A stretch of DNA of 64,000 nt from the NCBI GenBank assembly GCA_948664205.1, contig CAPNDH010000001.1:30165-94164 (forward strand), read 5' to 3'. The notes beneath the pieces are model-generated. The model saw only the letters and a program-made list of their open reading frames with translations. It ran no database searches and was not told the DNA's origin. Positions 19,294 to 54,799 of this stretch are shown here, in pieces. The stretch comes from an uncultured Clostridia bacterium (GTDB taxonomy: Bacteria; Bacillota; Clostridia; TANB77; CAG-508). Position 1 is the first letter of the stretch. Every line of letters starts with the position of its first letter. The position numbers and the translations under genes were made by a program.

Positions 19294-19932
19294 ATGAAAA
19301 TTTCCTTACCAGAAAATTATTCTTATAAAGATATTGCAGAAGTACAAGATGGTATTTTATGCATCCACAAATTTTATTTTGAAGATTTAATGTATGACTT
19401 AACATATGCATTAAAATATTCTTCTAAATGTTATTTTTGTGGAAAACCTATTTCTCGGGAGAAATCTTCTTTAGATCATTTATATCCTAGAGATTTTGGC
19501 GGTCCAACGATTCCTAATAATTTAGCTATTTGTTGTTCAAAATGCAATAGTGTTAAAACTAATATGACAGAAGAACAATTTCTTTATTTTTCTTCTATTT
19601 TAGATGGTGAAAGGCAAAAAGAATTTTATCGGGATATTTCACTTCAAAATCATATTTCTATGAAGTGGTATGGACCTATAATTCCGAAAGAATGGATTTC
19701 TGAACAGAAAGCAGAAAAAATAACTGTTTATTTCTTTATGGGAAAAGGTGTTAATGGTAAAACTTATAAAAAAGTTGAAAAAAATTATAAAAAATATGGA
19801 CGTATTATTAGGCCAATTATTGTAGATAGAAATTTTAAACTTTTAGGTGGCTTCAATGTTTTATTATTTGCTAAAAATAATTCTATTGATACTATACCTA
19901 CTATCATTCTTGAAAATGTAGAACTTGATTGA
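19294..19932 (+). CDS. HNH endonuclease domain protein; start moved to the ATG after RBS GAAAGGAG
   Basis: CYFCGKP...DHLYPRDFGG...NNLAICCSKCNSVK is a His-Me finger. Own promoter TTGACA-17-TAAAAT at 19225-19253. Orphan plus-strand gene. Confidence 0.55.
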   Translation: MKISLPENYSYKDIAEVQDGILCIHKFYFEDLMYDLTYALKYSSKCYFCGKPISREKSSLDHLYPRDFGGPTIPNNLAICCSKCNSVKTNMTEEQFLYFSSILDGERQKEFYRDISLQNHISMKWYGPIIPKEWISEQKAEKITVYFFMGKGVNGKTYKKVEKNYKKYGRIIRPIIVDRNFKLLGGFNVLLFAKNNSIDTIPTIILENVELD

Positions 19933-20040
19933 AATAAGTAAAAGTGGCTTTGCTACTTAGACGGCTAATAACTCGCCCCTACGACTTAAAATTGATTTTT
20001 TCTATAAAATAAGAAAAGAAGAGGACAATCTCCTCTTTTC

Positions 20041-21231: not shown

Positions 21232-21312
21232 TTTCTTTGGAAGTTAGAAGTTGTAGGTTGGAATTATTGGGTAGTTTCTTCGAAGAGCGGACGTGCAATG
21301 CACGCCCCTACA
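21232..21312. repeat. Family-1 palindromic element (heptad array + TTCGAAG + hairpin + CGCCCCTACA) upstream of the deoB RBS
   Basis: GGAAGTT AGAAGTT GTAGGTT GGAATTA, then TTCTTCGAAGAGCGGACGTGCAATGCACGCCCCTACA. Confidence 0.7.
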
Positions 21313-24279: not shown

Positions 24280-25128
24280 ATTGCCAGTTTTCTGAAATTA
24301 TTGCAATTTCAAGTTTTTTAAAGTTTCCATAATATAAATTATAACACACTTATTTCTTTTTGTAAATACGTACTATATATTATTACTTTTTCTACTTGTT
24401 TTTTTAGTGCTCCTTCTAGTGCTTTTTTGTACAAATTTAGTTGTTCTTTGTATTTTTCTATTAGTTCGTTTTCATTTTGTACATAGTCTGTTTTGTAGTC
24501 TACTAATACTATATTTCCTTGTTTATCTATATAATATAAATCTATAATTCCTTGTACTAGTACGTTTTCTTCTATTTGATTATTGTAAATTTCACTTGCT
24601 GGAATATTTATATAAAATGGCTCTTCTTTATGCACTTCTTTTGCTTCTTTAAGCTCTTTAAATAAATTTGATTTTGTTAATTGTAATAATGTTTTTGTGT
24701 TTATGCTTTCCACTTCTTTTTCGGTTATTATATTTTTGTTTCTTAATTCTTTTATTAGTTCTATAATATCTTTTAATTCATATTCTTTTTTCTCGTTTAA
24801 GTTTTTAATGCATAAATGCATTAGTGTTCCTTTTTGTGCTCCTGTTATTTTTTCTTCTTTTTCGAAGTTTGGTGTTTTTAGATTTTTTTCGTTTTTTGTA
24901 ATTTCTTTGGAGTGCTGGTCGCCAATGGCTGTGACCCCTACAGGGCTTTCTTTTCTATTTTTTATTTCGCTTACAGAGGTTTTGGTTGGTATGTTTTCTG
25001 AATTTTTGTATTTATATTGCCAATTTAGAATTTCGTTAATTTTTAGTTTTTCGTTCTCTTTGATTTCTTCTTCAAAGTGCAGATCTTCGGAGTCTGCGAT
25101 CCCTACATCAAATTCTTTGCTATTTTCT

Positions 25129-25181
25129 GGGCGTAATTCGGTAAATTCTTTGTGGTATTCCTTACCGATTAAGCCCCTACA
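25129..25181. repeat. Family-2 hairpin element inside the addA C-terminal ORF (in-frame)
   Basis: GGGCGTAATTCGGTAAATTCTTTGTGGTATTCCTTACCGATTAAGCCCCTACA, translated as GLIGKEYHKEFTELRP. Confidence 0.75.
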
Positions 25182-25220
25182 TCCTGTTTCTAGCTCTTGG
25201 CTTCCACTATCTAACATATG

Positions 25221-25285
25221 ACCTCCGACATCCGACTTCTGACTTCTGTTTTGGTAGTTTGTTCGAAGGGCGGGCGATTGATAAT
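25221..25285. repeat. Family-1 element inside addA at the ORF break
   Basis: CCGACAT CCGACTT CTGACTT heptads plus TTCGAAGGGCGGGCGATTGATAATCGCCCCTACA. Translated as ...HYVGAIINRPPFEQTTKTEVRSRMSEVIC*. Confidence 0.75.
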
Positions 25286-26516
25286 CGCCCCTACATAATG
25301 TTCTTGTACCTCTAATATTTGGGCTATTTTTTCTTTGTCATTTAAGTATACTAATTCTATCCAGTCTAAATATGATATGTATTTTTCTAGTAGGTTTTTA
25401 TCTAGTTTTTGTTTGTTGTAAATTTCTAAAAGTGCTTCTTTTTCTTTTAGTGATTTTTGTAAGTCTTTTTCTACACCTGTTATAAATAATTTTTCTTTTG
25501 CTCTTGTAAGTGCAACATATAATACTCTCATTTCTTCTGATATTGTTTCTTTTCTTATTTTCAAACGTAATGCTTCTTTTGCTAATGTATTATATTCTAT
25601 TCTTCGTTCGTAGTTTATGTATTTCATTCCAAATCCTAAGTCTTGGTGCATTAATACATTGTCATTTAGGTCTTGTAGATTGAATTTTTTACTACTTCCA
25701 CATAAAAATACTACTGGAAATTCTAAACCTTTACTTTTGTGAATACTCATAATTCTTACTACATTATCGTTTTCTCCAATTATTTTTGCAGACCCCATAT
25801 CTTTACTGCTTAGCTTTAATTTGTCTATAAAATTTATAAAGTTATACAAACCTTTAAAACTTGCACTTTCATATTGCTTTGCCTTTTCAAATAGCATTTT
25901 TAGGTTTGCTTGTCTTAGTTTTCCGTTGTTTAACAAACCTACATAATTGTAATAATTACTATCCATATATATTTGCCAGATAAGTTCATCTAGTGTTTTG
26001 TATATTTCTATATTTTTCCAATTTTCTAGCATAGTTATGAATCGATTTATTTTCTCTTTTAATTCTTCGCCTACTGCTACTCTTGCTTTTAACATTGCGT
26101 TATAAAAACTTTCACTTCTGTCTGCTAAACGTATTTGTACTAGGTCATTGTCTGTAAAATTTGCTATGCTTGACCTTAATACTGTAATTAGTGGAATATC
26201 TTGAAGTGGATTATTTATTATTTTTAGTACGCTCATTATTGTTTGTATTTCTGTTGATTCTAAGTATTCGCTTGAAGTATCACTAAATACTGATATATTT
26301 TTTTCTATTAATTCTTTTTCATATATTGGTGCTGAATTTAAAGTTGACCTTAATAATATTACTATGTCTTTATATTGTATTGGTCTGTAGCCTGTTTTTC
26401 TGTCGTATATTTGGTATTTGCTATTTATTAGTTCTTGTATTTTGTTTGCGACAAATTTTGCTTCTATTAGGGTGTTTTCTATTGGTTCTTCTACATTTTC
26501 GTCTTCTTGGGTAATT

Positions 26517-26604
26517 TCTTCGAAGGGCAGGCGATTATTTCTTAGCTCTTCGAGCGGATAGCGAGTTAGAGATAAGTTATGCGCTAGCTTAATCGCCCCT
26601 ACAT
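26517..26604. repeat. Family-1 long element inside the addA N-terminal ORF (in-frame, about 30 aa)
   Basis: TTCTTCGAAGGGCAGGCGATT...AATCGCCCCTACA. Its internal segment is the reverse complement of the copy at 40797-40883. Encodes NVGAIKLAHNLSLTRYPLEELRNNRLPFEEIT. Confidence 0.75.
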
Positions 26605-28325
26605 TCGTATTATATTCTTGATTTTGGCTTGCCAAATCTATAATATGTAGTTCTGCTACCGGGTTATTTTCTGTTTGTGGATAGTCCGCTCCTAGGTTTA
26701 GGTATTCATCTTCGTTGTAATCTATATCTCCTAATTCTTTACTCATTATTTGTTCAAATATATTATTTGTAATATCTAGTACATTTTCTCTACTTCTAAA
26801 GTTTTTAAATAATTGTATTTTTTTGCCTTGTTTTTTCTCTATTGTATTAATTAAATTTTGTAGAGTAGCCACAGCAGTATATTTTTCATATTTTTCTAAA
26901 AACAACTCTGGTCTTGCTTGTCTAAACCTATATATACTTTGCTTTACATCTCCAACCATAAATATATTGCTTCCGTTTGAAATACTGTTTAGTATATATT
27001 CTTGTACTAGGTTACTATCTTGATATTCGTCTATTGCTATTTCTGTAAATTTTTCTTTTATCTTGTTTGCAACTTCTGTTGGAACATATTCTCCTTCTTC
27101 ACTTTTTTGTACTAATATTTTTAGTGCAAAATGTTCTATGTCGTGGAAGTCTATTATATTCTTTTCTTTCTTTTTTTCTAAAAATCTTGTTTCAAATTCA
27201 ATAACAATATTTTTTAAATTTGATAATGTTTTATACATTTCGTACATATCTTCATTTGCTCTATATGAATCATATAAAAATATTTTTTTATTTGCAGAAT
27301 CTATATCTTTTTTTACTTTATCTCTTATTTCTTTTGCTTCATCCTTTAATGATATACTTATTTTTCTATCTATTGGCCATTTTTCAAATTTTAAATTTGA
27401 TACTTTTTCATATGTTTTATTCCATATATTTTCATTGTTAGAACTAATTTCATTTTCTATTTCTTGTATAGCTTCAATATCGTTTATTATTGTTAATGAA
27501 TATTTTTCTAGTTCTGGCTCTTTTAATAGTTTTCTTTTTATTCCTTCTAATTTTAATATATTTTCTCTTAATTTTTCTTTATATTCTTTTAACAGAATTT
27601 CTCCCCATATTGTTTTTGCAAAGTCTTTATTTAATTTTTCTTTTAAATTAAACATTTCTACTTTTTCTTCTAGCCATTCTTTAGGAAATGGAGCACTTTG
27701 TATATAATTATATATTCTTAATATTAGTTCTTTTAATGGCTCGTCTCCCCTATATGTTGTATATGTATTTATTAAATTCAAAAATTCTTTATCTTTGTTT
27801 ATATATTTATCCTCAAATAAGTCTTCTAGTATGTCTTGTTTTAGTAATTCTACTTCTGTTTGGTCTCCTATTCTGAAGTTTGCTGATATGTCTAATTCAT
27901 AAAAATAATTTCTAATTACTTCTAGGCAAAATGAGTGTATTGTACATATACTTGCTCTATTTAGTAGTGTTATTTGTCTTTGCATACGTACATCATTTGG
28001 GTTTTCTTCTATTTTTTTATAAATAGCATCTAGTATTCTTTCTCTCATTTCACTTGCGGCTGCATTTGTAAATGTAACAACTAATATATTATCTATATCT
28101 ACATTTTCATTAACTATTTTATTTATTATACGCTCAACAAGCACAGCTGTTTTACCACTTCCTGCAGCTGCTGCAACTAATATATTTGAACCTTTTTCAT
28201 ATATAGCTTTTTGTTGTTCTTTTGTCCATTTAACTTCTGACATATTTCTCCTCCATTTTTTATTACTATATCATAAATCTTTGTTAAAGTAAAACCACAC
28301 AAATTAAATTTTGTGTGGCTTTATT

Positions 28326-31926: not shown

Positions 31927-33315
31927 TTAAAATTCTAGTTTTTCCTCTAACCACGCTGGTATTTCGTCTATTTTTAAACGTATTTGCTCCATTGTGTCTC
32001 TATCACGTATTGTTACTGTGTCATCTTCTAATGTGTCAAAGTCTACTGTTACACAGTAAGGTGTTCCTATTTCATCTTCTCTTCTATAACGTTTTCCTAT
32101 TGAGCCTGCTTCATCGTAGTCACACATAAATTTCTTTGATAATTTTGTATATACTTCATCTGCTTTTTCACTTAGTTTTTTAGATAGTGGTAGTACTGCT
32201 ACTTTGTATGGTGCTAGTGCTGGATGTAAGTGCAGAACTGTTCTTGTGTCTCCTTCTGCTATCTCTTGTTCTTCGTAGCTGTTACATAACATTGCTAGGA
32301 ATATTCTATCTACACCAACTGCTGGTTCTACGCAGTATGGTACATATTTTTCATTTGTTTCTGCGTCTAAGTATGTTAAATCTTGTTTTGATGCTTCCAT
32401 ATGTCTTGATAAGTCATAGTCTGTTCTATCTGCTATTCCCCATAGTTCTCCCCAACCAAATGGGAATAAAAATTCTATATCTGTTGTTCCTTTACTATAG
32501 AATGATAGTTCTTCTTTTGAGTGTTCTCTCATTCTTAAGTTTTCTTCTTTTACTCCTAAACTTAATAACCAATCTTTACAGAATTTTTTCCAGTATTCAT
32601 ACCATTCTAAATCTGTTCCTGGTTTGCAGAAAAATTCTAATTCCATTTGTTCGAATTCTCTTGTTCTGAATATAAAGTTTCCTGGTGTTATTTCATTTCT
32701 AAAAGAACGACCCATTTGACCTATTCCCATTGGCATTTTCCTTCTTGTTGTACGTAGTACATTTTTAAAGTCTACAAACATTCCTTGTGCTGTTTCTGGT
32801 CTTAGGTATACTTCTGATTTTGCATCTTCTGTTACTCCCATAAATGTTTTGAACATTAAGTTGAATTTTCTTATTTCTGTAAATTCTTGTTTACCACAGT
32901 TTGGACAAGTAATATTATTTTCATTTATATATTCTACTAATTGTTCATTTGTCCAACCATCTAATCCTGAAATGTCTTTTCCTTTACTAAATCCCCATTC
33001 TTCTATTAATTTGTCTGCTCTATGTCTTGTTTTACATGATTTACAATCTATTAGTGGATCTGAAAAGCCTCCTACGTGACCTGTTGTTACCCATACTTGT
33101 GGGTTCATCATAATTGCAGCATCTATTCCTACATTGTATTTATTTTCTATTATAAATTTTCTCCACCAAGCATCTTTAATATTTTTCTTAAGTTCTGCTC
33201 CTAATGGTCCATAATCCCAAGAATTTGCTAAACCTCCATAAATTTCCGACCCTGGGTATACAAACCCTCTGTTTTTGCATAATGCAACTAGTTTTTCCAT
33301 TGTTAATTCTGACAT
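31927..33315 (-). CDS. glyQS: Glycine--tRNA ligase, dimeric class II; ORF-track N-terminal extension trimmed to MSELTMEKL after RBS AAAGGAGG
   Basis: [39 protein letters not shown]... full-length match. The ORF-track extension reads through a palindromic repeat. Confidence 0.9.
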
Positions 33316-33336
33316 TTTAATTCCTCCTTTTATAAT

Positions 33337-33440
33337 TGGAGGTTGGAAGTTGGAGATTGGAGATTGGAACTTCTGGGGAATTCCTTCGAAGAATTTACCC
33401 CATATTCCAACTTCCAACTTCTAACTTCTAACTTCCATAT
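33337..33440. repeat. Long palindromic Family-1 element (heptad arrays flank a GGGGAATTCCTTCGAAGAATTTACCCC core) between the T-box terminator and the glyQS RBS
   Basis: GGAAGTT GGAGATT GGAGATT GGAACTT ... CCAACTT CCAACTT CTAACTT CTAACTT CC. Both arms are visible in the sequence. Confidence 0.75.
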
Positions 33441-33700
33441 AAAAAAACTTTCATTCCTAGCCTTTTAGCTAGGGACGAAAGTTTTATTTTTCCGCGGTTC
33501 CACCCTAATTGGTAATTATTTTTGTTAATTACCCTCTTTTATTTTTATATGCTCCAAAGCTCCCCACAAATATTTTATTGTTGGCTTTCACCTTAACCCA
33601 ACTCTCTTTTTAATAAAATAATTTTGCTTTTTCTCTTTCATTGCATTTATATTTAACTAATTTATATTATTTTATTCTTTTTTTATAATAAAGTCAATAT
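33432..33700 (-). promoter_or_regulatory. T-box riboswitch leader of glyQS with intrinsic terminator
   Basis: Minus-strand AAUUAGGGUGGAACCGCGG T-box sequence (33492-33510). Terminator hairpin 33441-33485 followed by a U-tract. Confidence 0.7.
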
Positions 33701-33751
33701 AAATATTAATATTTCGCTATTTTTTTAACTTGTAATTATAATTCATTAAAT

Positions 33752-34558
33752 TTATTTAGCAATTTTATATTTACCTCTAAATACAACTTTTTCATTATCT
33801 GGTATTATACTATTTACTACTATATTAATTTTTCCTTCTTGATTTATATTCGCTGATACAGCTCTGCCTCCAGATTCTGTTATTTGTAGCGGTTCTAATT
33901 CTATTGCTTTTGGTAGATCAGTAAACGCTGTATACTTGCCCGCCCAATTAGGAGATTTATTTGTAAGCGCAACTATATATACATATACCATATTCCCTTG
34001 TATCATATAACCACCTTGTATATTTTTAAATCTATCTTCATATATTTTAATTTCTTCTGAACTGTAATTTGTTATATCATATAATATATTATCACTAATT
34101 ACATTTTCTGTTTTATTGTTTGCAACTTTTATTCCATCTATACTTGCTAATTGAAGTGATGAGTTTATTTCGAATTCATATGGGTATTGATTTAATTTTG
34201 TGAATATTGATGTTTTATTTCCTACTGTTACTTTTTCTTTATCTGCCACTTTACTTTCTAATGCTACATATTGAATTTCATTATCTTCATATAGTATATC
34301 AGCTAACTCTTGAAGTGTTGGCATCTCTTGTTTTTCTGCATATTTATTCATTTGTACTGTAGTTATTTTTAAATTTATTATTTCTGTAGCTGTTTGCTTA
34401 TTGGTGACCTCTTTTGCTTGCTTTGTTCTTGTAAATACTCCGTTATTTTCTAAGCTTAAATATATTCCTATACTCGATAATATTATTAATATTATTATTG
34501 TTATTACTAATGAAATTAATGTTATTCCCTCACTTTTTTCTTTTCTCTTATTATTCAT
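33752..34558 (-). CDS. Prepilin-type N-terminal domain protein (pseudopilin-like)
   Basis: 268 aa. KSEGITLISLVITIIILIIL resembles a class III signal or N-methylation motif, but lacks E at +5. Confidence 0.45.
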   Translation of the reverse strand: MNNKRKEKSEGITLISLVITIIILIILSSIGIYLSLENNGVFTRTKQAKEVTNKQTATEIINLKITTVQMNKYAEKQEMPTLQELADILYEDNEIQYVALESKVADKEKVTVGNKTSIFTKLNQYPYEFEINSSLQLASIDGIKVANNKTENVISDNILYDITNYSSEEIKIYEDRFKNIQGGYMIQGNMVYVYIVALTNKSPNWAGKYTAFTDLPKAIELEPLQITESGGRAVSANINQEGKINIVVNSIIPDNEKVVFRGKYKIAK

Positions 34559-34670
34559 TTGTTTTCCTCCATTTTTATAATTGTTCTAGTATAGAACAAT
34601 TATAAAATAAATTTATTATAAAATCAATAAAAATTGTTCTATTTTTGAACATTTTTTATTAGGAGGTAAT

Positions 34671-34919
34671 ATGCATAAAATAAATCAATATAATAATAAT
34701 CTTAATATTATTGGTGATAATATTAAAATATTACGTAAAAAGCAAAATCTTTCTCAAGAATATTTATGCGCGAGAATGCAAACAATGGGATATAAAATTA
34801 GTCGTTCTGATATGTCTAAAATTGAAAATAATAAAAAATTCATTTCAGATTTTGAAGTTTTAGGATTTGCAAAAGCTCTTAAAGTTAGAGTTAGCAATTT
34901 ATATAATGGATTCGAATAA
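34671..34919 (+). CDS. XRE-family helix-turn-helix transcriptional regulator
   Basis: 82 aa, IKILRKKQNLSQEYLCARMQTMGYKISRSDMSKIENN. Terminator hairpin 34920-34939. Confidence 0.7.
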   Translation: MHKINQYNNNLNIIGDNIKILRKKQNLSQEYLCARMQTMGYKISRSDMSKIENNKKFISDFEVLGFAKALKVRVSNLYNGFE

Positions 34920-34971
34920 GGATGGTATAATAACCATCCCTATATTATTTAATATTTATTATTTTAAAGTT

Positions 34972-35027
34972 CCCAAAAGGGACAGATTACCCATTAGGAA
35001 ACGTCCACAATGGACACCCCATGCACA
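34972..35027 (-). repeat. Family-3 element (degenerate copy) abutting the murC stop codon
   Basis: CCCAAAAGGGACAGATTACCCATTAGGAAACGTCCACAATGGACACCCCATGCACAC. Confidence 0.45.
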
Positions 35028-36407
35028 CTATTTAAGCATCATATCTCCTAATTGTGTTATTGTTCCTGCTCCTAAGGTTAATATTATATCATCTTTTTGT
35101 ACATTTTCATTTAAGTAGTTTATTATATCACTAAACTGTGGTATATATATTGCTTTTCTTCCCATTTCTTTTAGTTTTTTTACTATGTCTTCTGAAGATA
35201 CTCCATATGTGTTTATTTCTCTTGCTGCATATATATCTGTTACTATTATATTATCAAAATATGTTAAGCTTTCTGCAAATTCATTTAAATGGTTTGCTGT
35301 TCTACTATAGGTGTGCGGTTGAAAAACTACCCATGAATGATTATATGTCTTTTTCTTTAAACCTAATGCTGTTGCTTTTATTTCTGTTGGATGATGTCCA
35401 TAATCATCGTATACACTAGCTCCATTAAAGTTTCCTTTATATTCAAATCTTCTATGTGCCCCTGTGTATTTTTTTAAACCTGATTTTATATCTTGCTTTT
35501 CTATTCCATAGCTATGGCATAATGCAATACAAGCTAAAGCATTAAGTACATTGTGTGGTCCTGGAACTGATAATTCAAATGATCCATAAAAATTATTGTT
35601 GTAATATACGTCAAACCTTGGGAAACCATCTTTACTATATGTTATTCCTCTTGCTATAAAGTTTGCTTTTTCATTTTCTATAGCATATGTAACTACTTTT
35701 GCATTTGTATATCTGTGTAGCTCGCTACAGTATTTGTTATCTATGTTTGTAACTAATAAGCCATCATCTGGTAACAATCCTACATATTTTATAAAAGCTT
35801 TATTTATATTTTCAATGTTTTTAAAATAGTCTAAATGGTCGTTATCTATATTTAATATTACTTCTGCTCTTGGATAAAATTTTAGGAAGCTTTCTACATA
35901 TTCACAAGCTTCTATTATAAAATGTTCACTATTTCCTATTCTATAATTTCCATTTATTGCTTTTAATTCTGCACCTACCTGTATTGATGGGTCTTTACAG
36001 GCTTCTATAAAACACATTGATACCATTGATGTTGTTGTTGTTTTTCCATGTGTTCCTGATATACAAATTGTATCTCTAAAAGCTTTTGTTATTTTTCCTA
36101 AAAAATCTGCTCTTTCTATTGTTTCTATTCCAAGTTCTTTTGCTCTTACAAGCTCTGGATCATCTTGTTTTATTGCTGCTGTATACACAACCACATCAGA
36201 TTTACCTACCATGTTTACATCATGACCTATTACCACATGTATTCCATCTAAATTTAATTTTCTTGTGGTATCAGATTCTGTTCTATCTGAGCCAGTAACA
36301 ACAAAACCCCATTTTTTTAGAATTTCTGCTATACCGCTCATACTGACTCCACCAATACCTATCATATGTATATGTTTATATTTTCTTAATTCTTCTATAT
36401 TTGCCAA
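35028..36407 (-). CDS. murC: UDP-N-acetylmuramate--L-alanine ligase
   Basis: 459 aa, HMIGIGGVSMSGIAE...GTHGKTTTTSM; Mur ligase motifs. Confidence 0.9.
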   Translation of the reverse strand: MANIEELRKYKHIHMIGIGGVSMSGIAEILKKWGFVVTGSDRTESDTTRKLNLDGIHVVIGHDVNMVGKSDVVVYTAAIKQDDPELVRAKELGIETIERADFLGKITKAFRDTICISGTHGKTTTTSMVSMCFIEACKDPSIQVGAELKAINGNYRIGNSEHFIIEACEYVESFLKFYPRAEVILNIDNDHLDYFKNIENINKAFIKYVGLLPDDGLLVTNIDNKYCSELHRYTNAKVVTYAIENEKANFIARGITYSKDGFPRFDVYYNNNFYGSFELSVPGPHNVLNALACIALCHSYGIEKQDIKSGLKKYTGAHRRFEYKGNFNGASVYDDYGHHPTEIKATALGLKKKTYNHSWVVFQPHTYSRTANHLNEFAESLTYFDNIIVTDIYAAREINTYGVSSEDIVKKLKEMGRKAIYIPQFSDIINYLNENVQKDDIILTLGAGTITQLGDMMLK

Positions 36408-36540
36408 GTTATTCGCCCTCTCCTTTTTTAGTGTTCTAGCTTATTATACAATCTAAATGTATTTTTTTCAATACATTTTGTAAAAGTTATTTTTATGTCG
36501 AATTTTGTAGTATTGCAATTTTTAAAATATTATTTTGTAT

Positions 36541-36659
36541 TGTAGAAGTCGCCGCCTTATCATGCAACTTGTGCTTCAACGAAATTACTTAAATAAAATA
36601 TGTATTTTTATAGCATTTCTTCGAAGATCGGGTCGCTTGATAAGGCGGCGACCCCTACA
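36541..36659. mobile_element. MITE-like Family-1 element with about 22-bp terminal inverted repeats
   Basis: TGTAGAAGTCGCCGCCTTATCA ... TGATAAGGCGGCGACCCCTACA. Internal CAACGAAATT...GCATTTCTTCGAAG is shared with the copy at 47528-47632. Confidence 0.7.
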
Positions 36660-36757
36660 ATTATTATATGTTATTTATTATATAAAGTTACAATTCAAGG
36701 TTAAATCATCCTATAATTATTCACTATTAACTATTCATTATTCACTTAGGCTTCCTT

Positions 36758-38670: not shown

Positions 38671-38708
38671 TTTATTTCCTCTTTTATTTTATAATTTCTA
38701 ATATAAAA

Positions 38709-38760
38709 GGGCGTAATTCGGTATTTCTCATAGGTATTCCTTACCGATTAAGCCCCTACA
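38709..38760. repeat. Family-2 hairpin element
   Basis: GGGCGTAATTCGGTATTTCTCATAGGTATTCCTTACCGATTAAGCCCCTACA. Confidence 0.75.
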
Positions 38761-38818
38761 TTTAATAATTATTCACTATTCATTCTTCATTATTCACTTA
38801 GCACGTAAGTGCGCTTTA

Positions 38819-40672
38819 TTATCTTCTTGCTTCTCTTTCTCTTGTTTTTGTGTCTAGTGTTTTCTTTCTTAAACGAATATTTTTTGGTGTTACTTCTACT
38901 AGCTCATCTTCTGCTATGAATTCTATTGCTTTTTCTAGTGACATTTGAAGTGGTGGTACTAGACGTAGTGCGTCATCTGAACCTGAGGCTCTTGTGTTTG
39001 TTAGGTGCTTTTCTTTACATACGTTTATTGCTATATCTTCATTTCTTGAGTTTATTCCTACTATCATTCCCTCATATACATCTACACCTGCTCCTATTAG
39101 TAGTTCTCCTCTTTCTTGTGCATTATATAAACCATATGTTACACTTGTTCCTTGTTCCCATGCTACTAGTACTCCTCTTGTTCTTGCTTGTATGTCTCCT
39201 TTAAATGGTTCGTAGCAATCAAATATTGAGTTCATTGTTCCTTCACCTTTTGTATCTGTTAAAAACTCTGTTCTATAACCTATTAGTCCACGTGCTGGTA
39301 TTTTGAATTCTACTTTTGTGTGTCCCGCTTCTGCTGGTTCCATATTTGTCATTTCACCTTTACGTCTTCCTAATTTTTCTATTACTGTTCCTATTGATTC
39401 GTCTGGTACATTTACTACTAGTCTTTCTACTGGTTCACATTTTACACCATCTATTTCTTTGAATATAACTTTTGGACGTGATACTAATAGTTCAAATCCT
39501 TCTCTTCTCATTGTTTCTATTAATACTGATAAGTGTAGTTCCCCACGTCCACATACTTCGAAACTATCTGCTGAATCTGTTTCTTTTACACGTAAAGACA
39601 CATTTCTTTCTAGTTCTTTGAATAATCTATCTCTAATGTGACGTGATGTTATGAATTCTCCTTCTTTTCCTGCAAATGGTCCATTGTTTACACTAAATGT
39701 CATTGATACTGTTGGTTCATCTATATCTACAAAAGGTATTTTTTCTGGGTTATTTAGGTCACATATTGTGTCTCCTATGTTAATATCTGCTACACCTGAT
39801 AGTGAAACTATATCTCCTGCTGTTGCTTCTTCTACTTCTGTTCTTTTTAGACCTTGATATGTGAATAGTTTTGCTACTTTTCCTTGTGCATTTTTTTCTT
39901 GCTTACATATTGCTATTGGCATTCCTGCTTTTATTGTGCCACGTTCTATTCTTCCTACTGCTATTCTTCCTAGGTAGTCATCATAGTCTATGTTTGAAAC
40001 TAGCATTTGCGCTGGTCCATCTATTTCACATTCTGGCGCATCTATATATTTTACTATTGTATCAAATATACAGTTTACATTATCACTTTCTTCTGATAGG
40101 CTCATTTTCGCTATTCCACTTTTTGCTGATGCATATATTACTGGGAAGTCTAATTGGTCATCATTTGCATCTAATTCTATGAATAGTTCTAGTACTTTGT
40201 CTACTACTTTTTCAGGGTCTGATCCTGGTCTATCTATTTTATTTATTACTACTATTGGTTTTAAGTTTAATGCCAATGATTTTTTAAGTACCTCTCTTGT
40301 TTGAGGCATTGGTCCTTCAAATGCATCTACTAATAGTAATACTCCATCTACTGTTTTTAGTACACGTTCTACTTCTCCACCGAAATCTGCGTGACCTGGT
40401 GTATCTACTATATTTATTTTTATATCATTATACATTACTGATGTATTTTTTGAAAGAATTGTTATTCCTCTTTCTTTTTCTAGGTCATTTGAGTCCATTA
40501 CTCTTTCTGCTACTTGTTCATTTTCTCTAAATACATGACTTTGACGTAGTAGGCAGTCTACTAACGTTGTTTTTCCGTGGTCAACGTGTGCAATTATTGC
40601 TATATTTCTTATATTTTCATTTTTCATTTTTATTTTTCCCCTTTCAAAATTCGAAGAATTTTGTACTTTCAC
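38819..40672 (-). CDS. typA: Translational GTPase TypA/BipA
   Basis: 617 aa, NIAIIAHVDHGKTTLVD...DTPGHADFGGEVERVL, with EF-G-like domains. Confidence 0.9.
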   Translation of the reverse strand: MKVQNSSNFERGKIKMKNENIRNIAIIAHVDHGKTTLVDCLLRQSHVFRENEQVAERVMDSNDLEKERGITILSKNTSVMYNDIKINIVDTPGHADFGGEVERVLKTVDGVLLLVDAFEGPMPQTREVLKKSLALNLKPIVVINKIDRPGSDPEKVVDKVLELFIELDANDDQLDFPVIYASAKSGIAKMSLSEESDNVNCIFDTIVKYIDAPECEIDGPAQMLVSNIDYDDYLGRIAVGRIERGTIKAGMPIAICKQEKNAQGKVAKLFTYQGLKRTEVEEATAGDIVSLSGVADINIGDTICDLNNPEKIPFVDIDEPTVSMTFSVNNGPFAGKEGEFITSRHIRDRLFKELERNVSLRVKETDSADSFEVCGRGELHLSVLIETMRREGFELLVSRPKVIFKEIDGVKCEPVERLVVNVPDESIGTVIEKLGRRKGEMTNMEPAEAGHTKVEFKIPARGLIGYRTEFLTDTKGEGTMNSIFDCYEPFKGDIQARTRGVLVAWEQGTSVTYGLYNAQERGELLIGAGVDVYEGMIVGINSRNEDIAINVCKEKHLTNTRASGSDDALRLVPPLQMSLEKAIEFIAEDELVEVTPKNIRLRKKTLDTKTREREARR

Positions 40673-40796
40673 TATTCATTCTTCACTTTTCACTATATTA
40701 ATTTTTCCATTATTATCGGGCAGACACATTTCGCCTGCCCTCCCAAGCCGTAGGTTTGTACTATTCACTATTAACTATTCACTATTCACTGAACAA

Positions 40797-40945
40797 TTCC
40801 TTCGAAGTGCGGGCGATTGGCTTTGCATAACTTATCTCTAACTCGCTAATCGCTCGAAGAGCTAAGAAAATAATCGCCCCTACGTTTCTTTTATGTTTTC
40901 TATATGTTGTAGTTACACAGGCCGACGAAGGCGACGACCCCTACG
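40797..40945. repeat. Family-1 long element plus adjacent mini-element, preceded by a TATTCAC heptad array
   Basis: TTCGAAGTGCGGGCGATT...AATCGCCCCTACG and TGTAGTTACACAGGCCGACGAAGGCGACGACCCCTACG. Heptads TATTCAC x4 at 40761-40790. Confidence 0.7.
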
Positions 40946-40977
40946 GTGGTTTTATTATATAGATTTTTTGTTTTTCT

Positions 40978-47527: not shown

Positions 47528-47632
47528 TGTAGGGGCGACTATTAGTCGTCCGTGCTCCAACGAAATTGCCCTATAAATATTATATTTTAGCAATTTCTTC
47601 GAAGAGCGGACGAGCTATGCTCGCCCCTACAA
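47528..47632. mobile_element. MITE-like Family-1 element with TIRs TGTAGGGGCGA...TCGCCCCTACA
   Basis: TGTAGGGGCGACTATTAGTCGTCCG...TTCTTCGAAGAGCGGACGAGCTATGCTCGCCCCTACA. Spurious ORF 47363..47593 reads through it. Confidence 0.7.
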
Positions 47633-48870: not shown

Positions 48871-49021
48871 CTGTAGGGGCTAAATCGGTAAGGAATACCT
48901 CTTTGGGAATACCCAATTTCGCCCTTACATATTTTAAAATATTGCTATAAATTTTACATATATGTTTAGGGCGTAATTCGGTAAATTCTTATGGGTATTC
49001 CTTACCGATTAAGCCCCTACA
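48871..49021. repeat. Two Family-2 elements in opposite orientation (composite palindrome of about 150 bp)
   Basis: 48871-48929 TGTAGGGGCTAAATCGGTAAGGAATACC...GCCCTTACA, and 48969-49021 GGGCGTAATTCGGTAAATTCTTATGGGTATTCCTTACCGATTAAGCCCCTACA. Confidence 0.75.
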
Positions 49022-54051: not shown

Positions 54052-54528
54052 CTATAACGTTCTATAATTGTTTTTATCTGCTCTTTCGTCTAGTTTTCTA
54101 TCATATTGTTCATTTTTGTAAAACCAGTCTGTTTTTTTGTCTGTTGGATTTTTCATTCTGGTTCTATCTAGTAATATATCAAATAATACTAATATTGGAA
54201 GTGCTACTCCTATTAGTGCAAAGAACATTTCTGTATATGTTTGCATGCTTAGAGTTTCGTTGTTTATTATTTTCATAACATTTTCTATTAAACCTCTTCC
54301 AAAATACCATCCATATGCACCTAAATACACTATTGCTCCTAATAGTTTTCTTTTGAATATAAATGGTATGCATATTAATACTATAAATAATAGTGCTATT
54401 TCTACGTTTGCATCTATTGGTGAAACTACAAAGTCTATTCCCATGCTTCCTGTTACTGCTACGGCTACTCTAAATAGCCAATACATCATTACAAATATTG
54501 TTATTAGCCAACTGCTTAAATTTTTCAT
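54052..54528 (-). CDS. Hypothetical membrane protein
   Basis: 158 aa with 4 TM segments. Long structured 5' leader (54541-54756). Confidence 0.35.
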   Translation of the reverse strand: MKNLSSWLITIFVMMYWLFRVAVAVTGSMGIDFVVSPIDANVEIALLFIVLICIPFIFKRKLLGAIVYLGAYGWYFGRGLIENVMKIINNETLSMQTYTEMFFALIGVALPILVLFDILLDRTRMKNPTDKKTDWFYKNEQYDRKLDERADKNNYRTL

Positions 54529-54603
54529 TCGATTTTATCTCCTTTTTCAATTTTTATGCCAAATACTGGCTTTGCCACCCTACGTGTTAAATTATTCGCT
54601 CCC

Positions 54604-54714
54604 AGTAAGTAATATATTTTATTTTTTCCATTTCGCCCTCCAAGCTCACGGGTATTCCCCCGCCTCAAAGGGCTGTCGGGACTTCATTACAAAAATAAAA
54701 TATATTACTCACTT
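54604..54714. mobile_element. MITE-like element with 23-bp AT-rich TIRs enclosing a 65-bp GC-rich core, inside the 5' leader of 54052..54528
   Basis: AGTAAGTAATATATTTTATTTTT ... AAAAATAAAATATATTACTCACT (one mismatch). Core CCATTTCGCCCTCCAAGCTCACGGGTATTCCCCCGCCTCAAAGGGCTGTCGGGACTTC. Confidence 0.5.
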
Positions 54715-54799
54715 CGCGCTACTCTATAACTTAAATTAGTGTACTTTCCTACTATAAAATAAAAGTGGTTGGAATTTTTGTTCCAACCACCTACCGTTA

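Follow-up and report, generated by a model that had tools for sequence, protein, structure and literature searches.

The Correia elements of Neisseria and the Rickettsia palindromic elements (RPEs) are palindromic repeats of about 100-150 nt that are co-transcribed with genes. The hairpins of Correia elements, whose inverted ends are defined and which carry TA duplications, are substrates of RNase III; RPEs insert in frame into coding sequences. Elhai is said to have described, in 2008, small mobile repeats within cyanobacterial heptamers. In bacteria no long simple repeats are more over-represented than heptamers, and slippage has been proposed as their origin (Mrazek 2007, as cited in PMC4679880 and PMC4692102). 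In Geobacter metallireducens the 'class 3' paired sites consist of five tandem MTYCTGA heptamers per strand, for which binding by IHF/HU was guessed (PMC2700814), and arrays of TAACTGA lie upstream of start codons in Beggiatoaceae, cyanobacteria and Bacteroidetes, with a putative translational role (MacGregor 2015, PMC4679880). Here we analyzed a 64-kb stretch of DNA (the window, to which all positions refer) from an uncultured low-GC gut Clostridia lineage, and in particular a 99-nt palindrome (33338-33436, minus strand) in the leader of glyQS, a gene that is read on the minus strand. The palindrome is built of a heptad arm, the core GGGGTAAATTCTTCGAAGGAATTCCCC and a complementary heptad arm. 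It is probably a copy of a mobile, slippage-prone mosaic repeat, carried as a passenger in a permissive slot of the leader. The leader is organized as follows (ORF, open reading frame; SD, Shine-Dalgarno sequence; MFE, minimum free energy; TRF, Tandem Repeats Finder).

33669-33697, minus strand: sigma-70-like promoter of the glyQS leader, TTGACT-17-TAAAAT (10/12 in a consensus scan), 19 nt upstream of the T-box match
33468-33650, minus strand: T-box leader (Rfam RF00230, 78.3 bits, E 3.3e-17), its Gly specifier being the conserved GGA of ..GGGGAGC..
33441-33488, minus strand: T-box terminator hairpin and U-run (inverted repeat I4, 21-nt arms, 86% complementary), paired in the MFE fold
33402-33436, minus strand: 5′ heptad arm GGAAGTT AGAAGTT AGAAGTT GGAAGTT GGAATAT (TRF period 7, 4.7 copies, 92% matches)
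33375-33401, minus strand: core palindrome of 27 nt, GGGGTAAATTCTTCGAAGGAATTCCCC, which folds as a hairpin
33338-33374, minus strand: 3′ heptad arm AGAAGTT CCAATCT CCAATCT CCAACTT CCAACCT CC (TRF period 7, 4.9 copies), which pairs with the 5′ arm
33313-33329, minus strand: SD (AAGGAGG) and ATG (33313-33315) of glyQS, read from the sequence; the SD region is kept in relatives that lack the element

The gene itself (31927-33315, minus strand) is a 462-aa ORF with the domains tRNA-synt_2b and HGTP_anticodon. The order T-box, terminator, U-tract, palindrome of about 100 nt, ribosome-binding site (RBS) and ATG, as given in a preliminary description of this DNA, was borne out by the sequence, by Rfam and by TRF. 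Only four bases (ATAT) separate the terminator from the first heptad unit, and 10 nt lie between the 3′ arm and the GGAGG at 33323-33327. The GGTGGnACCGCG box of the leader is kept in orthologous glyQS leaders, and the specifier appears to be GGA. A default Rfam scan reports nothing at this T-box, because its 78.3 bits are below the RF00230 gathering score of 93. The palindrome is not part of that family, since the match to the model ends at 33468, upstream of the 3′ half of the terminator. We also discarded any other known RNA family: at gathering thresholds Rfam gave no match in the 64 kb, and at E<=10 only chance matches of the miRNA or snoRNA kind.

The RNA fold of the palindrome reaches -47.5 kcal/mol (z = -7.4; 0/200 shuffles were as stable), and the expectation that a very stable hairpin is transcribed into any read-through glyQS mRNA was right. 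It had also been called near-perfect. A palindrome it is, and by several measures (period-7 calls in both arms, fold stability) more than a chance one, but the heptad arms are only 71% complementary (ungapped), and the fold shows roughly one mismatch per heptad. Variant units stand next to each other within one arm (AGAAGTT twice, CCAATCT twice) with no matching change in the opposite arm, a pattern that fits local slippage. The core consists of two 17-nt modules (CTTCGAAGAAATTACCC, the T module) placed head to head so that they share the 8-nt palindrome CTTCGAAG; accordingly the T module is matched on both strands, with 1 and 2 mismatches, and the stem is formed by GGGG/CCCC flanking an AT-rich TTCGAA centre.

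The T module is one of three modules that recur in the window, which has a GC content of 26% and carries nearly all its genes on the purine-rich minus strand. Module H consists of arrays of 7-nt units, GAAGnnn on one strand and nnnCTTC on the other; the window holds five arrays of period 7 and none of period 5, 6 or 8. Module T is matched six times, with 0.1 matches expected, and the palindrome at its head, CTTCGAAG, forms the joint at which T meets either an inverted copy of itself or module R. Module R is a GTAG-headed, GC-rich hairpin of the repetitive extragenic palindrome (REP) kind and comes in two types, type A directly before T and type B as GTAGGGGCTTAATCGGTAAGGAATACC...CGCCC. The string GTAGGGG occurs 16 times in 64 kb against 1.1 expected (14-fold), 14 of these on the minus strand, and about 13 of the sites head GC-rich hairpins in which GTAG is unpaired in the fold. 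The unpaired GT[AG]G at the foot of the palindrome that marks GTAG REPs is therefore present in about 13 window sites and in the R module of a copy upstream of deoB, and absent from the glyQS copy, which has no GTAG head. As in GTAG REPs, the R modules are many, mostly extragenic and partly arranged as inverted dimers, and such doublets of the REPIN kind (paired inverted REPs) are found at 36540-36660, 47529-47630 and 48873-49020. Arrays of the GTGAATA type (36718-36746, 38770-38798, 40667-40694 and 40760-40790) and of the GAAGTCA type (25219-25248) each adjoin an R or a T module. The arrays also resemble the short tandemly repeated repetitive (STRR) sequences, in that at least three 7-nt units stand in tandem and their number varies between related genomes. 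Members of the family sit inside the addA coding sequence, just past stop codons, and 170 nt from the next gene. By sequence comparison, the glyQS palindrome belongs to a dispersed non-coding repeat family, whose other main members in the window are these.

25217-25294, minus strand: REP hairpin and T module inside addA, with GAAGTCA-type heptads whose end, GGAGGTCATATG, gives the SD and ATG of the downstream ORF
26509-26602, minus strand: REP hairpin (nested 48-nt insert in its loop) and perfect T module, in frame inside addA
36540-36746, minus strand: GTGAATA array (36718-36746) 11 nt past the spoIVB stop, then a REPIN-like doublet (36540-36660)
38703-38798, minus strand: in the spacer that separates bipA from an O-methyltransferase gene, a GTGAATA array (38770-38798) and then a family-B REP (38703-38759)
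40628-40977, minus strand: composite spacer upstream of bipA, with two REPs, a T module, GTGAATA heptads (40760-40790) and a second half-element
40640-40694, minus strand: half-element of heptads and T′ abutting the bipA SD, absent in strain L529
47529-47630, no strand assigned: REPIN-like inverted doublet of a family-A REP, T modules facing inward

A segment of about 48 nt (TTTCTTAGCTCTTCGAGCG.ATAGCGAGTTAGAGATAAGTTATGC) lies in the loop of the GGGGCGATTA/TAATCGCC REP stem at 26524-26602 and at 40808-40883 (minus strand), in opposite orientations, which could reflect nested insertion or inversion within the hairpin loop.

The copy upstream of deoB is composed of the following parts.

21286-21311, minus strand: module R, a GTAG-headed REP hairpin, GTAGGGGCGTGCATTGCACGTCCGCT (DNA hairpin -8.1 kcal/mol, z = -3.4)
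21269-21285, minus strand: T module CTTCGAAGAAACTACCC, one mismatch to the consensus
21239-21262, minus strand: single heptad arm TCCAACC TACAACT TCTAACT TCC, ending 7 nt before the GGAG of the deoB SD

Its REP hairpin begins 5 nt past the stop codon of the upstream ORF. A related copy of the repeated element is thus present at deoB, as had been announced, with the T module and a heptad arm in common. The further claim of an identical architecture failed, since no T-box or terminator was found upstream of deoB and the REP hairpin takes the place of the left arm, so that the 17-nt T module and one heptad arm are all that the two copies share. Read as modules, the glyQS copy is H-T′/T-H′ and the deoB copy R-T-H′: they are, on this evidence, of the same family and of different architecture. 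The deoB spacer of a related contig, L007, is unrelated sequence.

We then turned to relatives (L-numbers denote contigs of related species or strains and of public metagenome assemblies). The glycyl-tRNA synthetase is 97% identical to proteins of metagenome-assembled genomes of uncultured gut Clostridiaceae, and the wider clade includes Clostridium sp. CAG:273. When 48 T-box glyQS leaders from related species (the window and 47 others) were compared, the terminator-to-ATG spacer ranged from 20 to 147 nt, and in about half of them it was at most 46 nt and unstructured. The heptad palindrome was absent from 47/47 of the other leaders, the window being its sole carrier among the 48. At least 10 other leaders hold strong palindromes in the same slot, and these belong to at least five unrelated sequence families (folds of -53 kcal/mol in L082, -62 in L064 and -56 in L073; GGGGAC-type repeats in L003 to L006). 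All slot palindromes start 0-6 nt past the U-run, at distances of 2-55 nt from the SD. Among the slot repeats seen in L003-L006, L531, L532, L064, L073 and L082 are GGGGAC-type units such as CCAATTGGGGACGTTTCC and pairs of the form GGGGACAGTG...CACTGTCCCC, which are like miniature inverted-repeat transposable elements (MITEs).

Metagenome contigs selected by exactly the same upstream protein (L002, L530, L533, L531 and L532) allowed a comparison at strain level. The heptad element is present at glyQS in L002, L530 and L533. In L531 and L532 the upstream gene is identical over 807/807 nt, and the stretch between U-run and SD is taken up exactly by a GGGGAC-type repeat. As compared with window positions 32745-36091, L531 has the identical upstream 268-aa gene and a glyQS that is 93.5% identical over its first 571 nt. 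An identical upstream gene followed by a different slot repeat indicates that the slot is an exchangeable cassette position at a recombination boundary. The U-run itself is broken up in the L531 allele (GTTCTTTCC), and a G-to-A change in the core of L533 breaks a pair and is uncompensated. In the most syntenic relative (L007, 9976-10001) glyQS has no T-box leader and directly follows a murC-like gene, the 268-aa gene being missing. Contig L001 ends within the glyQS terminator, about 25 nt upstream of the element. The preliminary description had supposed that the position beside the RBS may be more than accidental, which does not agree with an element found in 1/48 leaders and with a different repeat in the same slot of L531 and L532. 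A bias toward RBS-proximal sites among the copies was likewise largely not seen in the 64 kb examined, where some are inside addA, some just past stop codons and others far from any RBS; the palindromes of the glyQS slot, for their part, are anchored to the U-tract.

The same instability was observed at other loci. Full H-T′/T-H′ elements stand at unrelated loci of the closest species (L007 2961-3066, L025 12673-12785 and L006 7150-7272), the L006 element having two arms that are built of different units and are non-complementary; R-T without heptads is found in L004. Strain L529 encodes an identical BipA protein, with 96.7% nucleotide identity to the window. Upstream of bipA it lacks the 55-nt H-T′ half-element that abuts the SD in the window, its spacer has 5 heptads versus 4, and the REP joined at the same TTCGAA is of type B versus type A in the window. 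L007 lacks the REPIN of 36540-36660, and the neighbouring array (36718-36746) differs there by one 7-nt unit. The addA gene (24339-28243, minus strand; UvrD helicase and PD-(D/E)XK nuclease) contains four REP-derived in-frame segments and is split in the window into ORFs of 1010 aa and 292 aa, whereas the ortholog in L029 is one unbroken ORF of 1169 aa, from which at least the REP24941 segment is missing. At the start of the second addA ORF the heptads supply GGAGGTCATATG as SD and ATG, and this ATG overlaps the TAG of the first ORF. Alignments of these contigs thus show presence/absence and replacement polymorphism between strains and species, and to changes in the number of 7-nt units.

These results fit a model in which the modules would spread at the DNA level, either by a REP-type process (Y1/RAYT-like) or by recombination at TTCGAA, and the heptad arms would grow and shrink by replication slippage. 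The stretch from the terminator U-run to the SD would be the only dispensable part of the leader, where insertions leave both the T-box decision and the SD untouched, and would have been colonized repeatedly by unrelated palindromic repeats in this clade. The glyQS copy would be selectively near-neutral, its sole consequence being an extra stable hairpin in the read-through mRNA.

Several points weigh against this reading. Several copies end close to SDs (gaps of 10 nt at glyQS, 7 at deoB, 0 at bipA, 0 at the addA restart, 8 in L025 and 20 in L006), and copies 0-20 nt away leave room, with this sample, for a start-proximal preference or a use in the ribosome-binding region. The genome was sampled as 64 kb plus fragments. 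No Y1_Tnp (RAYT) or other transposase was found among the 20 window ORFs scanned, and no consistent target-site duplication flanks the copies of the window, L006, L007 and L025; because neither is visible, we can only infer the means of spread. Thermodynamic folding, on which the RNA-level results below depend, is blind to protein binding, RNase processing and co-transcriptional effects. Finally, for heptamer arrays just upstream of start codons in other phyla a translational role has been proposed (PMC4679880; bioRxiv 10.1101/2022.06.06.494920). For the start-codon arrays of Beggiatoaceae and Nostoc no mechanism was given, and experiments support the proposal solely through small effects on reporters in Nostoc (PMC4679880; bioRxiv 10.1101/2022.06.06.494920).

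The alternative that survives best, although we consider it unlikely, is that the palindrome is a cis-acting RNA. Its hairpin would tune translation initiation, with CCUCC as an anti-SD or with a U-run brought to the SD, or else mRNA stability or processing, as the substrate of a double-strand RNase or as a protective 5′ hairpin after leader cleavage; Correia elements, which are cut by RNase III in Neisseria mRNAs, provide a precedent. The very stable hairpin is transcribed with the gene, its CCUCC is located 10 nt from the SD, and proposals that start-codon heptamers act in translation have been published (PMC4679880). To evaluate the effect on the SD, the leader was folded from the terminator to +25, once intact and once with the element removed. 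The SD was unpaired with a probability of 0.62 when the element was present and of 0.66 when it was deleted, and CCUCC was paired inside the long hairpin and not with the SD. We therefore rejected an anti-SD translational operator, and with it the suggestion that the anti-SD-like end of the 3′ arm acts on the SD. When the terminator was left out of the fold the U-run paired with UAUAAAAGG and the unpaired probability of the SD went down to 0.33, which speaks for the cis-acting RNA; in the full leader no effect of the palindrome on SD accessibility is predicted.

The other RNA-level results were also negative. Selection at the level of the RNA was rejected, as the difference in stability between sense and antisense strands is inconsistent across six family members. 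The features of a structured cis-regulatory RNA are lacking in that the natural single-nucleotide polymorphism of L533, which breaks a core pair, is uncompensated, stability is not consistently higher on the transcribed strand, and there is no Rfam match above chance. Furthermore, the element is absent from orthologous leaders, an unrelated repeat takes its place in strains with an identical upstream gene, and the family has copies within coding sequence as well as some that are distant from every SD. The computations thus lend no support to a translational switch at glyQS, and the cis-acting RNA keeps a small probability because several copies abut SDs. A promoter inside the element that bypasses the T-box was rejected too, there being no sense-strand match in it. 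A promoter-like sequence on the antisense strand, CTGACA-16-TATAAT (11/12; 33309-33336, plus strand), overlaps the start and SD of glyQS and is directed toward the palindrome; as the DNA is AT-rich, the match may be due to chance.

To place the arrays in a wider context, metagenomes were scanned for GAAGTYR x3, with matches in at least 120 contigs whose GC content ranged from 27% to 69%. Many of the matches listed are pairs of the form (GAAGTCA)n ... (TGACTTC)n. In a control with viral contigs, GAAGTYR gave 111 stretches versus 100 and 110 for permuted units, and the idea that GAAGTYR is a special motif with wide conservation was discarded. A complementary partner was present within 300 nt for 5-20% of the arrays in each of the four sets. 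Whatever their unit, heptamer arrays are widespread among phyla, and inverted pairs of them are frequent. By crude ORF calling about half of the heptamer arrays are intergenic, and co-directional arrays are nearer to the upstream stop (median 4.5 nt) than to the downstream start (17.5 nt; 66 vs 43 cases, p = 0.035), which led us to reject a general proximity of heptamer arrays to start codons. A tie of heptad arrays to GTAG hairpins in other phyla was not upheld either, the enrichment being weak and noisy (0.65 vs 0.37 per kb) with clear cases in L137, L139 and L158. Similar array placement was seen in soil and marine contigs of unrelated high-GC organisms (L135 4329-4385 and L097 4558-4637), where GAAGTTA arrays run up to the groES start codon and the fabG-acpP spacer is occupied by a GAAGTCR/GAATTCC palindrome that ends 4 nt short of the SD.

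Very unlikely, in our view, is a classical MITE, i.e., a deletion derivative of an insertion sequence (IS) with the heptad arms as terminal inverted repeats and a transposase encoded elsewhere in the genome. Its size of about 100 nt, the length of its inverted arms, its repeated occurrence and its presence in some strains but not in others all suit this. The arms are there and the fixed-length target-site duplication is not: it is missing at 4/4 full copies, whose flanks are AT-rich and themselves palindromic. In addition, arm length and unit sequence differ from copy to copy, no parent IS was seen, and half-elements and REP fusions at a fixed TTCGAA joint are not expected from cut-and-paste. 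Least probable of all is a DNA-level protein-binding array, in which nucleoid-associated or other DNA-binding proteins would recognize the 7-bp units, alone or together with the TTCGAA core, and the arms would organize local bending, supercoiling or a cruciform: GAA/TTC common to the units at a fixed period, the annotation of paired Geobacter heptamer arrays as putative IHF/HU sites (PMC2700814) and a hairpin stability without strand preference, as fits a DNA-level palindrome, are outweighed by unit sequences that vary between copies (GAAGTT, GAAGTC, GTGAATA), arms that can be non-complementary (L006), permuted heptamers as frequent as GAAGTYR, which is against a specific recognized motif, a glyQS site that is polymorphic between strains, and the lack of any candidate binding protein.

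The mosaic-repeat reading may be extended, as a distinctly speculative proposal that we judge improbable, to a single, hitherto undescribed mobile system in gut Clostridia: a REP-type single-strand enzyme would cleave and join the heptad-T-REP mosaic at CTTCGAAG and leave the 7-nt arrays as a by-product, and elements would land preferentially between a terminator or stop and the next SD. If it were true, landed elements could donate or remodel ribosome-binding regions, as at the addA restart and the bipA SD, and REP spread and start-codon heptamer arrays, both unexplained, would be linked.

For the regulation of glyQS the favoured reading, an exchangeable passenger repeat, has little consequence: no damage is seen in T-box, terminator or SD, and the insert appears to be dispensable. 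It matters more that a gut Clostridia lineage of 26% GC carries GTAG-type REP hairpins, not reported for Firmicutes in the REP surveys consulted, that a fixed TTCGAA joint links these hairpins to heptamer arrays, and that gain, loss and swap can be followed between strains in public metagenome assemblies. Inverted heptamer arrays have been noted, with their origin unexplained, in Geobacter, Xanthomonas, cyanobacteria and Beggiatoaceae; this origin and the relation to REPs are directly testable by strain comparison. A warning also follows, namely that strong hairpins beside riboswitch terminators in such genomes can be passengers and can break assemblies.

Some further features of the window were recorded. 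Its strand asymmetry is very strong: plus-strand GC skew is -0.17 to -0.29 and AT skew about -0.25, and the minus strand holds 56/61 ORFs. An HNH endonuclease ORF of 212 aa (19294-19982) is among the few genes on the plus strand; all strain contigs (L524-L526) have this gene, and a GTAG REP head is located at 19982, 50 nt beyond the end of this ORF. A segment of about 190 nt (54569-54757) is 90% identical to L005 18012-18153 and 20894-21084 and overlaps the end of an unannotated 164-aa plus-strand ORF (54245-54739); these matches mark it as a fragment of a small mobile gene or as one more dispersed repeat.

As for the known systems, the R modules are most like the GTAG REPs and their BIME (bacterial interspersed mosaic element) and REPIN assemblies (Di Nocera 2013, PMC3733652; Bertels and Rainey 2011, PMC3116915), with which they share the unpaired GTAG head and a GC-rich stem of 7-8 bp. 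Like GTAG REPs they are over-represented (14-fold), are present as singlets and inverted doublets, mostly past coding regions, and are sometimes in frame inside repair genes (addA); the mosaic of REPs with other short motifs recalls the BIMEs of E. coli. The glyQS copy differs in having no GTAG hairpin, only the 17-nt T tail being in common, and heptad arrays and a TTCGAA joint set the present family apart from the described REP/BIME families. The host differs as well: it is a Clostridia of 26% GC, whereas the REP survey makes no mention of Firmicutes, and no TnpA-REP classes are listed for Clostridia.

Heptanucleotide simple repeats and cyanobacterial STRR sequences also consist of tandem 7-nt units, are intergenic, vary in copy number between relatives, have many unit sequences, include some inverted pairs and have slippage as their proposed origin. 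The arrays described here are in contrast short, at 4-6 units; they are tied to a conserved core that is not itself repetitive and are joined to REP hairpins, and unlike free microsatellites they behave as parts of a dispersed element. The Geobacter class 3 sites are similar in being inverted pairs of about five heptamers with a variable spacer, there between operon genes (proB-proA), and the TCAGAAG/GAAGTCA unit found at 25219-25248 and in L006 has the Geobacter unit CTTCTGA as its reverse complement; the class 3 sites belong to another phylum, and neither a TTCGAA core nor a REP fusion was reported for them. As with the TAACTGA arrays, heptamers are found here within a few nucleotides of start codons, but those arrays are direct and replace a canonical SD, whereas here a strong SD is kept, the arrays are inverted pairs and they start at the terminator or stop side. 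The in-frame REPs of addA are reminiscent of RPEs, although there is no sequence relation to either Correia elements or RPEs, and heptad arms are not known from either. What is new here is the combination of heptad arms around a TTCGAA core, a T module that is the same as the REP tail, and a host among the Clostridia.

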